IMG/VR virus record: IMGVR_UViG_3300028840_002190
Strand: one strand, 5' to 3'
DNA from: a virus
Length of the DNA: 64,000 bases
Shown: positions 1,032-45,288 of the stretch, piece by piece
How positions within the stretch are numbered: the stretch's first letter is position 1
How the letters are laid out: each line of letters starts with the position of its first letter
The notes under the pieces: generated by a model
The model's input: the letters and a program-made list of their open reading frames with translations, nothing else
The model's database searches: none
Told to the model about the DNA's origin: nothing
Position numbers and translations under genes: made by a program

Positions 1032-1224
1032 CCTCCTCCTCAGGTGGTCTCGGCAACCAGAACTCTAGCTCTTCCACGCGGTCCTGAAGCTCGTACACCA
1101 ATAAGACAAGCTCCATGATGATCGAATCACGATGGGCGTTTTCCAAGTGCTGAAGATGCGGAGGGATGCGCAGATCGCCGTTTTTATACAAGTGCTTAGA
1201 AGGGTCGATTACCTTGTCAGACAT
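1018..1224 (-). CDS. hypothetical protein
   Basis: GGAG RBS before ATG at 1224. Confidence 0.55.
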   Translation of the reverse strand: MSDKVIDPSKHLYKNGDLRIPPHLQHLENAHRDSIIMELVLLVYELQDRVEELEFWLPRPPEEEDDER

Positions 1225-3764: not shown

Positions 3765-4008
3765 CTCACGGCCTCCTTAGTTGAAAGGTAGAGTTACCTC
3801 CTTCTACCAAAAAAAGAACCATTACCGCACTATTGCGATATCTGGTTCTTCTCGCGGAGCTCACTCTCTCCACTTCCTCCTACGCCCACCAGAGGCGGTA
3901 CCGACCTAGAGGCTGTCAGTACTAGCGTTGACCACCACGCTGAGGACGGAGCATTGGCTTACGCCGTGAGGTTGCCCGTGGACCCTGTGAGGAAGCGCCT
4001 GGGGGTCG

Positions 4009-4302
4009 CTAGCCGTTGTACGCCCTCTCCACCGGCCAGTGGAGGGGAGCGCCAACGACTGCGCCCGGGAGGGGACGAACCACGAGGGACTCGTGATCCC
4101 GCACCTCGAGACCGTGCTTCTCCATGAAGAAGCCCGCGATATCGAGGGCGTCGTCCCGACTGGCCGCCGCAACGCACAGCGCTATACCGTCCAGCTCCAC
4201 GGGAGTGGTACGGAAGCGACGCTCGTCGCGGAGAGCCAGCGCCCAACCTTGACGGTCGTACGTACCGCCATGTCGGGCCGGAGAGTTGATGAAACGCTCC
4301 AT
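4009..4302 (-). CDS. hypothetical protein
   Basis: AAGGAGG RBS, GC3-rich, downstream of GGTACAAG motif. Confidence 0.6.
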   Translation of the reverse strand: MERFINSPARHGGTYDRQGWALALRDERRFRTTPVELDGIALCVAAASRDDALDIAGFFMEKHGLEVRDHESLVVRPLPGAVVGAPLHWPVERAYNG

Positions 4303-4354
4303 CCGGGCACCTCCTTATGAGTGAGTGTTCAGGATCCGTTCTCAACGCTATTTA

Positions 4355-4418: not shown

Positions 4419-5576
4419 TTAGGACTGAGTCCATTGGACGATGTCGTCCGAGGTGGGACCGTAGCTGACGTAGGCTTCCGAGGCGTCAACGGTATCAATG
4501 ATTCTACGCATGAACTGTTCCACGTTTGGAAAAGCGTGAATACGCCCCCCGATAACCGCTCGGAACTTCCCAGCCTCGAGGAGCAAGTCCATACAATTCA
4601 CAACGAGGTTGACCCGGCGAGTCCCCACAGCTTTAGACGTGGCATACTCCAAGAGGTCAAGGTCGAGATACCCTCTACGGAACCTACCCTGCGGCCCGTC
4701 GTCGTAGCTGCGCTCGTAAGGATTTACGAAAGTAGTCGAGTCAGAAAACTCATGGGTCATCGGACCCGCTCCGTGGCGTGTCTGATACGCCCGGGTGACG
4801 AGCCAGATCTCGCTGGGAGCGCTGCCATTGCGGAGCTCGAGAATATTTTTGAGCCCTGTAGAAGACGGCGTAACATGGGGAAAGAATCCAATCTCTTCGT
4901 CAAGGAGCAGCCCCTGGGAACCTTCGTAGATAGTGACGCTGGGAGGGTCGGGATGAAAAAGCCCAATATCCACAGACTCTACACGCTCCTCCACCACGTA
5001 CTGACACGACGTCAAGAACGCGTCAGTGTCCACTCTTCCAATGGGGTCATCGTCGTAGAACTGTCGAATAAGATCGAGCTTCATACGAAGGGCAGTAGGG
5101 TGGTAGATATCCTCGAAATGCAGGAGGTAACCAAGACCCTCTCTTCGAAGAGTGGCGAAGATACCTGCCCCGCAGGTTCCGTGCTTCGACACGTCTTCCC
5201 AGTGCGCATTCCACGCCAAGTCGTAAGGCGTGATGACCGGGCAACGCGGGTCAATACGGAGACGTGGGGGCTTCGGACACTTGAGCTTGAGGTCGTCGAG
5301 CTCATTGATGAGCGACACAGGATTCACGGGACAATAGTGCGTCCAATTGGTTAACGCACCACGCAGTGACCCGCTACCGAAATGGGAAAATACGTGTTCC
5401 ACCTCTTCGGTCTTTGGGAGCACTACGTGATGCGCTGCTTGCGGTCCTCCGGAAAACCGGAACACCACGGGATAATCGGTCGCGTTGTCGCAGAGCCAGT
5501 CCACGACGTGACCTTTGCCCTCGTCCCCGAAACCTGCGCCGATAACGGCGTGGCTGCCGGTGATAGCTCTCATCAC
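4419..5576 (-). CDS. purA: adenylosuccinate synthetase-like protein
   Basis: GAGFGDEGKG, HGTCGAGI, EGSQGLLLD, FPHVTPS, TRAYQTRHGAGP and RRGYLD motifs. Confidence 0.85.
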   Translation of the reverse strand: MMRAITGSHAVIGAGFGDEGKGHVVDWLCDNATDYPVVFRFSGGPQAAHHVVLPKTEEVEHVFSHFGSGSLRGALTNWTHYCPVNPVSLINELDDLKLKCPKPPRLRIDPRCPVITPYDLAWNAHWEDVSKHGTCGAGIFATLRREGLGYLLHFEDIYHPTALRMKLDLIRQFYDDDPIGRVDTDAFLTSCQYVVEERVESVDIGLFHPDPPSVTIYEGSQGLLLDEEIGFFPHVTPSSTGLKNILELRNGSAPSEIWLVTRAYQTRHGAGPMTHEFSDSTTFVNPYERSYDDGPQGRFRRGYLDLDLLEYATSKAVGTRRVNLVVNCMDLLLEAGKFRAVIGGRIHAFPNVEQFMRRIIDTVDASEAYVSYGPTSDDIVQWTQS

Positions 5577-8187: not shown

Positions 8188-8823
8188 CTACCTTCTCCAA
8201 ACATAAACCTCATTCCCTCGCTTCTCCTGAACGAAGACTTGAGTCTTGAGTTTGTTCTTCATGATCTCATCGAACCGCGCACCCAATGTGTTATGCGGCT
8301 CACCCCACTCAGGATGGTCATTCCGAATAGCCTGATAGATCTCCGAACGCGGAACTGCCCGAGACGAGTCGACAGCGCCGACTTTACCCAGGTACTTCCG
8401 AGCTGCATTAAGAAACTTGTTGCGGCGCGAAGGCTGCTTGTAGGGGTCCTTCGTCAACTTAACGCGCACATCCCCAGGGAGATTAGAGTCCTGCATCTTT
8501 ACGCCTTCTACACCGCCTGAACGCATGGCAATAAGGAATTCCTCGATCCGGGCCGCCGGAAGGACTTGCTGTAACTCCGAGCATGCGGTGTACGTTCTCT
8601 TGTTCAGAACCTTTTTGACGTCTCTGAATCCAGGAGACGCATCAGGGACTAACTGCAGCGGAGCTGTCGACGTCGCCTGCTCCTTTAGGGCGTCTAGTTC
8701 TTGTAACTGCTTCCGTGCAGCGGCGAGCGCTGTTTCGAGCCGCGAGATCTCCTCTTCGACGGAATCGCGGTCCTTCTGCCATCGAGCGTTATCGAACGCA
8801 ACATAGTCTTTCAATGTAACCAT
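8188..8823 (-). CDS. coiled-coil plus possible winged-HTH protein
   Basis: N-terminal heptads; basic C-terminal domain. Confidence 0.55.
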   Translation of the reverse strand: MVTLKDYVAFDNARWQKDRDSVEEEISRLETALAAARKQLQELDALKEQATSTAPLQLVPDASPGFRDVKKVLNKRTYTACSELQQVLPAARIEEFLIAMRSGGVEGVKMQDSNLPGDVRVKLTKDPYKQPSRRNKFLNAARKYLGKVGAVDSSRAVPRSEIYQAIRNDHPEWGEPHNTLGARFDEIMKNKLKTQVFVQEKRGNEVYVWRR

Positions 8824-9245
8824 CACATCGTCCCTTCTTTGCTAGGCCAAACGTACGGAAGGTCATCCGGCACATTCCAGCCGAACTGCTCATAGTGCTC
8901 CGGATACTTACGGAGTAAATTCGATTGGTGAGACTCGTGGAACTTCTCGTTGCCGAACCACGGCGGCATCTCGATGCGCCAGATGGTGTACGTGGCGTCT
9001 ATCGGCATCGTGTTGTTAAAGCCCCGACTTATCCACTCTCGTATCATGGCGTTAGCGTAAGCAGACAACGCCTCCTCGTAGCCTGCCCACATCTTCACTG
9101 CGGGGTGATTACGCCAGCGCTCACTACCGTGGCCTCGTAGAGCGTCGAGTATCTGACGAGCTTCTACTCTCTGCTTTCCTAGGCGTTTATTGTCTAGACA
9201 ACGCGCGGACTCGTAGAAGTCAGGCAACGGAAGGAATGTTTGCAT
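8823..9245 (-). CDS. pyrimidine-dimer DNA glycosylase (DenV/MSMEG_6728-like), copy 1
   Basis: MQTFLP...LDNKRLGKQRVEA.QIL..L...W.NHPAV.MW. Confidence 0.8.
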   Translation of the reverse strand: MQTFLPLPDFYESARCLDNKRLGKQRVEARQILDALRGHGSERWRNHPAVKMWAGYEEALSAYANAMIREWISRGFNNTMPIDATYTIWRIEMPPWFGNEKFHESHQSNLLRKYPEHYEQFGWNVPDDLPYVWPSKEGTM

Positions 9246-41206: not shown

Positions 41207-41334
41207 CGTCTTTCTCCTTGTTGGTGTTGTCTCCACGGGAACAGAGAAAGACGTGAAGGGGGGCCTCTAGCGGTTTTGTATTCAGGTGAATCTCATGTGC
41301 TTATCCTATTCATGGTTGCAGAGGATGTCAACTG

Positions 41335-41407
41335 CGCCCCCACCAGGACTCGAACCTGGAACGGCGTGGATTGAAAGCCAGCTACTCTGCCATTGAGTTA
41401 TAGGGGC
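41335..41407 (-). tRNA. aberrant tRNA-Glu-like (UUC) with distorted anticodon arm
   Basis: acceptor, D and T arms canonical; anticodon stem pairs only with an 8-nt loop plus a bulge. Confidence 0.6.
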
Positions 41408-42390
41408 TATGTGTTACAGATTCGGAATGTTGTGCTCGAGGTACGAGGGGATTATCTCATGACAGTTGCCACACGCTAAGACCTTTTCCTGCGTATGCTT
41501 CTGGATGTGCCACCATGGTGCGAGAATCGAGGACCCACACACCATGCACTTTCCAGGATTTTTGTACTTCACCTTCCTCTCTTCCCAGTGGTAAGTGGGT
41601 GTGATCCCTCTGGACCAATGCCAAAGCCCTTCGCTGATGGAAAAAACGTAAGCAAGGTACTCGTAAGTGTGTAGCGCGTAATGAGGGTCTTCGACAATCT
41701 CGATCTCTTCTATCGAGTTCTCTGCGTTACGTGTCCAGTTAGCAGTACCTCGTATAGCCGCCGTAGGGATGTACTTTCCACCTTTACCCGGCAATAGCCG
41801 CACCGCGTGTTTGAGGTGCATTAGTGGACTCGTCTCATTTTCTCTAAGCGGAGCACGGCTCCCTCGAAAATCTCCTACAAGACGTACGGCGTCTATCATT
41901 CCGTAGTCGTTTTGTCCGTCACGACGACTCAGGTGTGCAAAACAGTTACCCGGTAACTGGTTACGTCTCACGTAACAGACGAGATTGTTGTACGCCCGGG
42001 CAACGCGTAGTGTAGGGCGGAACTTATCCACAACTACTGCGCAGTTTCCGTGTTCTAACGCGTTGATGAGGTCTTTGTGTGTCAGGATATTGAGTCCTGC
42101 CAGGATCATCCCGTCAGCCCTGTTAGTCTCACGTATAAACTTAATAATTTCGTCCATGAAGTTTGCACGGTAACGCGTTACGTTTACGATCTTGGCGTAC
42201 GTACGTTTTTGCGGGAGTGACGGAGCTCCCCGCGTACCCGCGTAGGTGGCGAGGTCACTGTTAAAATTTTGGTCAGGTGCTGGACGACTGCTGGGAGTTG
42301 CCTCATACGTTTTCATTTCTAGACCTTTCTCTTGTGTCTCTAGACGCACTTTTAAGGATGTGCGCGTGTAACCTATTGAGTTATAGGGGC
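41392..42390. repeat. 16-bp direct repeat ATTGAGTTATAGGGGC at 41392-41407 and 42375-42390
   Basis: exact match; equals the first 16 nt of the tRNA-Glu-like gene; flanks the PLD ORF. Confidence 0.9.
41414..42316 (-). CDS. PLD-superfamily (Nuc-like) nuclease with C-terminal zinc finger
   Basis: LMHLKHAV...IRGTANWTRNAENSIE (HxK and GxxN motifs); CMVC...CGNC. Confidence 0.7.
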   Translation of the reverse strand: MKTYEATPSSRPAPDQNFNSDLATYAGTRGAPSLPQKRTYAKIVNVTRYRANFMDEIIKFIRETNRADGMILAGLNILTHKDLINALEHGNCAVVVDKFRPTLRVARAYNNLVCYVRRNQLPGNCFAHLSRRDGQNDYGMIDAVRLVGDFRGSRAPLRENETSPLMHLKHAVRLLPGKGGKYIPTAAIRGTANWTRNAENSIEEIEIVEDPHYALHTYEYLAYVFSISEGLWHWSRGITPTYHWEERKVKYKNPGKCMVCGSSILAPWWHIQKHTQEKVLACGNCHEIIPSYLEHNIPNL

Positions 42391-42720
42391 GTTTCCGAAG
42401 GTGTGCTACTACGCCAAAGACCTGTCTTCTACCCGGCGGCTATCTCCCGCTGTTCTACGCGTCGCCTACCGCCGAAAACACCGCGCAGAACACCAGCTGT
42501 AGCACGGCTGGAACACGCCCCCTGGACCTCAGACGTTTACCTTGCTCAAGGGCTCAATCTATTCGGATCCAGAGAGGGAGTACACTTGCAGCCTCAGGTC
42601 CAGTTTTTATTCGGCTAGTAACAAGCCGCCAACTAGCTGCCGGGCCTACGTGCCTCTGCGAAGATGGCGGGCCACTCTTTAAAGGATGGCTGCCTCTAAG
42701 CCAACCTCCCGCCAGAAACG
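42391..42720 (-). ncRNA. ncRNA containing a split 23S rRNA H43/H44 (L11-binding) mimic
   Basis: GGGAGGTTGGCTTAGAGGCAGCCATCCTTTAAAGAGT (42710-42674) plus GCGTAGTAGCACACC (42414-42400); ends paired. Confidence 0.75.
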
Positions 42721-42723
42721 CTG

Positions 42724-42797
42724 TCGGGGCGATAGGATTCGAACCTACGGCATCCAGCTCCCAAAGCTGGCGCGCTACCAGACTGCGCCACACCCCG
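42724..42797 (-). tRNA. tRNA-Pro(UGG)
   Basis: CCAGC-TTTGGGA-GCTGG. Confidence 0.95.
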
Positions 42798-42882
42798 TAA
42801 AAAAGAGCAGTGAGACGGAGTGGGGATGTGGGGGGAACATCCGGGGATTTCCATCTCACTGCTCAAGAGAATGATACTGCGA

Positions 42883-44466: not shown

Positions 44467-44599
44467 CTCTGTAGGAAGCAAGGCTCCCATTACACCTTAT
44501 TACAGACTATTGCGCGCCCACCTGTGGTCTGAACATGAGTACCACATGCCCGTCAGACCCTACCGTGCAGGTACTTGGTCTAGTCTCGCGCACCGATAG

Positions 44600-44673
44600 T
44601 GACCCCGGCGGGGCTCGAACCCGCAATCTTCGGCGTGAAAGGCCGATGTCCTAAACCATTAGACGACGGGGCC
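44600..44673 (-). tRNA. tRNA-Glu(UUC)
   Basis: TCGGC-CTTTCAC-GCCGA. Confidence 0.95.
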
Positions 44674-44902: not shown

Positions 44903-45288
44903 TGGTGGAGCCGCCGGGAGTCGAACCCGGGTCCGCCTACGGGTCATGTACTGATCTTCACGTGTGTGGTCTCCCTTTTCGTTTCAGACGGTGACTTCCG
45001 AGAGACGAGTCATCACGGTCTTACTGCGCTTTCGTTTACCCGGCGTCATCGCGCAGAACTCAGCCTGGGTTTGCCCGTGTAATTACGCCCCCTGGGTTAC
45101 TCGAGCTCCTCACTCAGGGCACGCCCGCGCCGTTTAAGCGGCCACGGCGAGCGGACTCGCCATGGGGGTCGGGAAGGGAACTACGTTGTCGGCAGTTCGA
45201 GTTGAGTGTCCTTTTTAACCCGCCGAACACACAAGGCGGAACACGCACAGTACACTTCCATCGCACACGTCGAAACCGTGTCGGCCCC
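44903..45288 (-). ncRNA. ssrA: tmRNA; tag ADNVVPFPTPMASPLAVAA*
   Basis: 5' GGGGCCGACACGGTTTCGAC; 3' GGTTCGACTCCCGGCGGCTCCACCA; tag ORF 45193-45134. Confidence 0.95.

Follow-up and report, generated by a model that had tools for sequence, protein, structure and literature searches.

The GTPase-associated center of 23S rRNA comprises the top of H42, H43 and H44 (E. coli 1051-1108) and is the 58-nt domain to which uL11 and thiostrepton bind. The C-terminal domain of uL11 binds these 58 nt in isolation, and the contacts of thiostrepton are with A1067 and A1095 (PMC1802607). A thiostrepton-resistance methyltransferase is reported to recognize the isolated domain (PMC2719339), and the bacterial toxin Tre23 ADP-ribosylates H44 at positions 1095-1098 (PMC8661411). 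Ribosomal-protein mRNA leaders (L10, L1) are off-ribosome RNAs that copy an rRNA site recognized by a ribosomal protein; such leaders work in cis, ahead of the genes for ribosomal proteins, and what they copy is no more than a small motif. Phages encode T4 species 1 and 2 RNAs, tmRNAs, and large ornate RNAs such as GOLLD and ROOL in the setting of tRNA genes, from which tRNA enzymes probably release them. None of these is known as a copy of an rRNA domain.

Here, we describe a free-standing copy of the GTPase-associated center, the split-GAC RNA, carried by an uncultured large phage. The window, by which we mean the whole 64,000-nt stretch of viral DNA that was analyzed (IMG/VR record IMGVR_UViG_3300028840_002190), holds the RNA at 42719-42391 on the minus strand (329 nt). 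It consists of an H43/H44 copy that is closed by a stem of its own and split by an insert of 259 nt (42673-42415) between 23S positions 1090 and 1091 (E. coli numbering). An earlier note on this DNA had quoted a 5' half at 42710-42674 and a 3' half at 42414-42400, 259 nt apart on the minus strand, and both halves are present there. Directly upstream lies tRNA-Pro(UGG) (42723-42797, minus strand; ARAGORN, with an Rfam tRNA score of 67.2 bits), and between its discriminator base and the start of the RNA lie 4 nt of spacer (42723-42720), in agreement with the note.

All parts of the RNA are on the minus strand and follow the order of the native domain. The 5' strand of the closing stem (42719-42709) is the equivalent of the top of H42 (1045-1055) and pairs with the 3' strand (42401-42391; 1104-1114) at 10 of 11 positions, with one mismatch, so the RNA ends do pair as had been proposed. 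The H43 copy (1057-1081) follows at 42707-42683, identified by BLAST to 23S and by helix conservation in the family described below; it contains the equivalents of U1060 (42704), A1067 (42697) and G1071/C1072 (42693-42692). The loop closed by the 1082-1086 pair and the lower 5' strand of H44 (G1087, A1088, G1089 and U1090) occupy 42682-42674 and were assigned from covariation and GAGU conservation. The inserted domain proper (42673-42419, 255 nt) begins and ends with a base helix that covaries in the family and reads GGCC/GGUC in the window (42673-42670 with 42422-42419). A linker conserved in the family, UUUG (42418-42415), joins the insert to G1091, and the upper part of H44 with its loop, then its 3' strand (1091-1104), occupies 42414-42401, with the A1095 equivalent at 42410. 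The loop equivalents of A1067 and A1095 are both kept, another claim of the note that holds.

With the insert removed, window positions 1055-1104 are identical to a native Paenibacillus 23S (the copy in L160) at 45 of 50 positions and to E. coli 23S at 43 of 50; the agreement of about 46/52 given in the note was about right. A search of the halves against LSU rRNA had also been proposed, and the 5' half matches 23S genes in 5,426 of 5,426 complete E. coli genomes, with a median of 7 matching places in each. Identity in these matches is mostly 90-95%, and the best among the matches listed is 91.9% over 37 nt. When the E. coli rrn operon was compared with the whole window, the sole significant match was 37 nt of the 5' half (E = 2.8e-7). 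In this comparison, no rRNA continues beyond the domain on either side, where the flanks are a tRNA and an ORF, and no further rRNA copy, such as the sarcin-ricin loop, was found in the window. Each half matches the family pattern with 0 mismatches and does so once in the window, where the chance expectation at ≤3 mismatches is 0.15 for the 5' half and 0.14 for the 3' half. The RNA has the H43 and H44 pairing, the 1082-1086 pair and the conserved tertiary-contact nucleotides of the GTPase-associated center fold. In the cultured phage Milchi, the corresponding stretch is the only match to the Rfam bacterial LSU model (E = 0.0025).

A distant BLAST search of the element against cultured phages recovered the same 5' half, in intergenic positions, in the Pseudomonas phages Milchi, Astolliot, pf16 and UNO-G1W1, as well as in Aeromonas phage 4_4572 and Xanthomonas phage XacN1. 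With a shorter query, XaC1, XbC2, Serratia BF, Cronobacter GAP32 and several Erwinia jumbo phages that form a group were also recovered; the rest of its matches were small records of true host 23S. The order of closing stem, H43 copy, insert, UUUG and H44 copy is common to GAP32 and to four of the cultured-phage loci found first. When IMG/VR was scanned for the pattern of the 5' half, 53 contigs were returned, only one of which (L020) was uninterrupted, true 23S. A scan with the 3' half of one genome per prokaryote species gave 88 places, 35 of which had the 5' half within 700 nt upstream; these 35 lie in assemblies from many phyla. After removal of duplicates, 79 distinct elements of the split design were collected from cultured phages, IMG/VR contigs and bacterial assemblies. 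The insert is at the same site in 79/79 elements and ranges from 45 to 355 nt (median, 140 nt). The element in the window shares the features of this family: its stem joins position 1055 to 1104, its insert lies exactly at 1090/1091 with a helix at the start and UUUG at the end, and it sits in a tRNA array on the strand of the tRNAs.

Three Clostridia genomes contain an element that differs from the native 23S copy of the same genome, so the family is not re-copied from each host. In isolates of Flintibacter muris (L122), Bacterium D16-76 (L132) and Clostridiaceae strain 9 (L062), a member occurs in the same assembly as a different native 23S copy. The Clostridia isolate members suggest prophage carriers, and hence temperate as well as lytic phages. 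On one bacterial MAG contig (L095), two members (3990-4351 and 5198-5393) lie about 1.2 kb apart with unrelated inserts. The carrier in the window is a novel phage, with no close relatives in the cultured-phage collection, where its best protein match has 30% identity (Salmonella phage Arash). Its genome also encodes a short adenylosuccinate-synthetase homologue of 385 amino acids (4419-5576, minus strand; Pfam E = 1.3e-38) and a homologue of pyrimidine-dimer DNA glycosylase (8823-9245, minus strand; Pfam Pyr_excise, E = 3.3e-24). Short phage homologues of adenylosuccinate synthetase (PurZ) can mark 2-aminoadenine genomes; the ORFs beside 4419-5576 gave no supporting Pfam matches.

We examined the fold by covariation, an analysis that the earlier note had called for, in an alignment of the 79 elements whose structure comprised the rRNA-derived pairs and the first four insert pairs (24 pairs). 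Standard pairs fill 93.6% of pair cells, compared with 69.3% in shuffles (0 of 500 shuffles reach the observed value), and sliding the partners by 1-3 columns reduces pairing to 37-54%. Changes on both sides are seen in 20/24 pairs, and the covariation score is 0.623, compared with 0.157 in shuffles. Compensatory changes occur in 9/9 family pairs tested in the closing stem. The six helix pairs of H43 are paired in 99.4% of cases, with double changes in all six; the pair 1058-1080, for example, is GC in 41 elements, AU in 18, UA in 13 and CG in 4, with a mixed picture relative to the host in the few examples compared. The pair 1082-1086 is UA in 56 elements, CG in 17 and AU in 3. GAGU (1087-1090) is conserved in 75-77 of the 79 elements, and a U1090-A1101 pair is the signature of the family (74/79). 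These results support the rRNA-like fold, and the central claim of the note, a free-standing H43/H44 rebuilt around an insert, is strongly supported and now extends to 79 elements. The folding energy of the window RNA is no better than that of shuffles (z = -0.07), so the case for structure rests on comparison and not on energy.

To guard against circularity, each half was scored for conservation only in elements that had been picked by the other half (39 for the 5' half and 36 for the 3' half). Among elements picked by the 3' half, the 5' half always has U1060, U1066, G1071, C1072 and A1077; A1088 is kept in 36/39 and A1067 in 35/39, with G at A1067 in 4/39. In the viral subset picked by the 5' half alone, G1093, U1094 and A1098 are invariant and A1095 is present in 35/36. 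Native rRNA leaves position 1061 free, and the family has U, A or G there. The invariant nucleotides are those that make the tertiary contacts of the native domain, so selection appears to keep the three-dimensional fold and not the helices alone.

The insert begins directly after U1090 throughout the family. Its first four pairs are paired in 99, 99, 96 and 70% of elements, with all pair types represented. Nearly all members have UUUG as the linker, whose bases U, U, U and G are found in 35, 35, 34 and 32 of 36 elements, respectively (viral subset picked by the 5' half alone). The insert helix abuts the linker and U1090 pairs with A1101; H44 is therefore a three-way junction with a continuous 3' strand. 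An alternative in which AAAG at 1084-1087 pairs with CUUU at the end of the insert was rejected, as 1086 covaries with 1082 and not with the linker, and in 99% of elements the base that opens the insert is paired with the nucleotide preceding the linker.

Beyond the junction, the inserts are diverse. BLAST clustering gave one class of 20 and otherwise pairs, one triple and singletons, and 48/79 inserts have no detectable similarity to any other in the set. Toward the end of the insert, in its last third, the class of 20 (L001, L002, L003 and 17 further loci) has a conserved module. This module is a GNRA or UAAN hairpin that bears a UAA bulge, and compensatory changes occur in its closing pair; when it was searched for with a strict pattern, 16 inserts and 0 shuffles matched. 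A second insert type is common to XacN1, GAP32 and a few others, and a GUAGAA(C/U) loop motif is weakly enriched (8 elements, compared with 2.1 expected). The only insert similar to that of the window is the one in L025/L028 (score of 155 in global alignment, compared with 88 ± 8 for shuffled sequences; z about 8.5), and motif scans of viral and metagenome contigs found relatives only in this lineage. The helices proposed within the window insert, whose type has only one relative, are putative. No comparable duplex in the family is lower in energy than the UGGCGGG/CCCGCCA helix that had been put forward as a switch, but this helix is specific to the window, with a family median z of 0.07 and no counterpart in L025.

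The tRNA setting recurs across the family. At least one tRNA lies within 5 kb of the element in 57/79 cases and within 300 nt in 46/79; a tRNA ends ≤50 nt upstream in 19/79 and one starts ≤50 nt downstream in 24/79. All 366 of 366 neighboring ARAGORN calls (tRNAs, and tmRNAs where present) are on the strand of the element, and the 8 tRNAs and the tmRNA of the window likewise share the strand of the RNA. This tmRNA (44903-45288, minus strand), which encodes a 30-residue tag peptide and scores 110.5 bits with Rfam, lies in the array of 8 tRNAs and is the only Rfam family in the window besides tRNA. The array includes a normal tRNA-Glu at 44599-44673 and a second tRNA-Glu(UUC) call at 41334-41407 (minus strand), whose anticodon falls at position 33 and whose Rfam tRNA score (45.6 bits) is the lowest in the window. 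A long hairpin at 42800-42866 (minus strand), with an 11-13 bp stem, a loop of about 30 nt and a following U run, ends 1-2 nt before tRNA-Pro and looks like the terminator of the upstream ORF. In that case, transcription of tRNA-Pro and the RNA would depend on read-through or on a separate promoter, and no such promoter was found.

The RNA was earlier said to end exactly at a tRNA 5' sequence, but the nucleotides in question (42390-42375) do not belong to a tRNA; they duplicate the first 16 nt of the tRNA at 41407 (41407-41392). Since this copy follows directly on the RNA, the RNA was once flush with that tRNA. The two identical copies flank an ORF of 311 amino acids (41414-42349, minus strand) that lies between the RNA and the tRNA at 41407 and matches nothing in Pfam or PHROG; the arrangement looks like the insertion of a mobile gene. 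The 3' end of the RNA today has no intact tRNA to guide RNase P. The suggestion that tRNA processing releases the RNA fits the tRNA context of the family, although in the window an intact tRNA is flush with the RNA on its 5' side alone.

No conserved protein neighbor was found, as no protein family occurs in more than 4 of the 79 neighborhoods. The RNA-binding domain of uL11 is absent from the 5 complete carrier phage genomes, whereas the control search found it in 14/14 cellular genomes. With no recurrent neighbor and no uL11 domain in the 5 carriers, the partner of the RNA appears not to be phage-encoded. Since the fold-defining nucleotides are all kept, no phage-encoded partner was found and carriers are spread over many phyla, the most likely partner is a universal ligand of the domain in the host. 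Our leading candidate is uL11, a proposal that we hold with belief and doubt in about equal measure.

The reading we favor, with roughly even confidence, is that the RNA is an off-ribosome mimic of the GTPase-associated center that most likely binds host uL11. A stable non-coding RNA of about 329 nt would be made together with tRNA-Pro as one transcript, with both its expression and its exact ends predicted from the DNA. Its ends fold into a self-closed top of H42, H43 and H44, the minimal uL11-binding domain, from which the 255-nt domain branches off H44 as a third helix, followed by the UUUG linker. The RNA would then bind a host factor that recognizes the fold, most likely free or exchangeable uL11, and might draw uL11 off ribosomes during infection, for example blunting uL11-dependent RelA signaling. 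What a phage would gain from the removal of uL11 is speculative. A plain uL11 sponge should need the 58-nt domain alone, and the main point against this model is that it does not explain the obligatory insert and UUUG linker.

The main rival, which we consider unlikely, casts the RNA as a decoy. A host or competitor enzyme directed against the GTPase-associated center, such as an ADP-ribosyltransferase, a nuclease or a methyltransferase, would take it as a substrate or be trapped by it. Phage tRNA arrays are held to offset tRNA-targeting defenses, and a decoy would be their RNA-domain counterpart. The position of the element inside a tRNA array would suit this role, as would the almost full retention of the H43 loop and of the H44 loop (G1093, U1094, A1095 and A1098) and the failure to find a phage-encoded partner in the 79 neighborhoods and 5 complete carrier genomes. 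A known toxin, Tre23, strikes exactly this site (PMC8661411), and the isolated 58-nt domain can be recognized by enzymes, as reported for the thiostrepton-resistance methyltransferase (PMC2719339). However, the literature searched yielded no anti-phage system directed against this center, a decoy must compete with the very abundant ribosomes of the cell, and the drift of A1067 to G in 4/39 elements is at odds with such a role. A counter-defense spare part or trap, in which the RNA soaks up a still unrecognized class of anti-phage effectors that disable H43/H44 or its insert docks it on damaged ribosomes, where it supplies a working uL11 stalk base in trans, is slightly less likely than this; it would be the rRNA counterpart of phage tRNA arrays. 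Equally unlikely is a reading in which the rRNA-like part serves as no more than a handle, whether as a stable fold or as a cap coated with uL11, and the activity lies in the variable insert, for instance that of an aptamer, ribozyme or additional binding site. That the insert is obligatory (79/79), that conserved classes exist (the GNRA/UAA-bulge module in 20/79 and the XacN1/GAP32 class) and that the window insert is conserved with that of L025 all speak for an active insert, but inserts vary from 45 to 355 nt and 48/79 resemble no other in the set, while the rRNA-like core is nearly invariant. This pattern of diverse inserts and a constant core points to the core as the constrained, functional part.

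The insert could also be an intervening sequence; its excision would leave a 58-nt domain that is contiguous if the ends are re-ligated and nicked if they are not. Its conserved boundaries (U before it and UUUG at its end), the helix that joins its ends and the annotation of a gene neighboring the XacN1 element as a 2'-5' RNA ligase are compatible with excision, which we nevertheless judge to be very unlikely. No processing enzyme is a conserved neighbor, and the hint of a group I intron in the earlier note did not hold up: neither group I (RF00028) nor group II models gave a match in the window stretch (E ≤ 10) or in four cultured-phage loci (E ≤ 5), and family inserts are as short as 45 nt, those of 45-62 nt being unable to hold an intron core. 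Group I introns at LSU sites near 1090 do interrupt the rRNA at the same place, with U before the insert and G at its end; unlike them, the phage RNA has no intron core, and its "exons" amount to only a 70-nt mini-domain. Small "phage" records that consist of true host 23S exist (L020 and Paenibacillus phage Pd_22F), and on that account one might suspect a pseudogene of rRNA, a chance match or a contig misassembled with host rRNA. This explanation is contradicted by the evidence and extremely improbable: the likeness to rRNA is confined to positions 1045-1114 of a self-closed element flanked by a tRNA and phage ORFs, the design recurs with covariation in 79 elements, and the U1090-A1101 pair, the UUUG linker and the insert are absent from the native 23S copies compared.

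If the favored mimic does bind uL11, or if it binds another ligand of the center, phages of hosts from many phyla would be using an RNA decoy to manipulate translation-factor docking, stringent signaling or ribosome-targeting immunity. The RNA would then represent a new class of phage-host interaction and provide a natural, self-folding scaffold of a classic antibiotic target. Cultivable carriers (pf16, Milchi, Aeromonas 4_4572, XacN1, GAP32, Serratia BF and the Erwinia jumbo phages) make its function directly testable.

With the GTPase-associated center of 23S rRNA, the phage RNA has in common the helices, the 1082-1086, 1091-1100 and 1092-1099 pairs, the nucleotides U1060, A1088, G1071 and C1072, and the A1067 and A1095 loops. 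Unlike the ribosomal center, it is free-standing, self-closed and encoded in a phage tRNA array outside any rRNA gene, and it has an obligatory domain inserted after 1090 together with the UUUG linker. Position 1101, the partner of U1090, is A in the phage RNA and U in the native copies compared. We found no virus-encoded, free-standing copy of an rRNA functional center in Rfam 15 or in the searchable literature, a full-text search of which returned no description of such an RNA. The T4 species 1 and 2 RNAs, phage tmRNAs, GOLLD and ROOL share its setting among phage tRNA genes, but the 601-nt stretch that holds the element matches no Rfam 15 family except tRNA, even at E ≤ 10. A ribosomal-protein leader was rejected as an identity for the RNA, there being no conserved protein neighbor and no Pfam or PHROG match for the downstream ORF at 41414-42349. 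In contrast to the L10 and L1 leaders, the phage RNA has no conserved downstream gene, is phage-encoded and reproduces a whole tertiary domain almost base for base.
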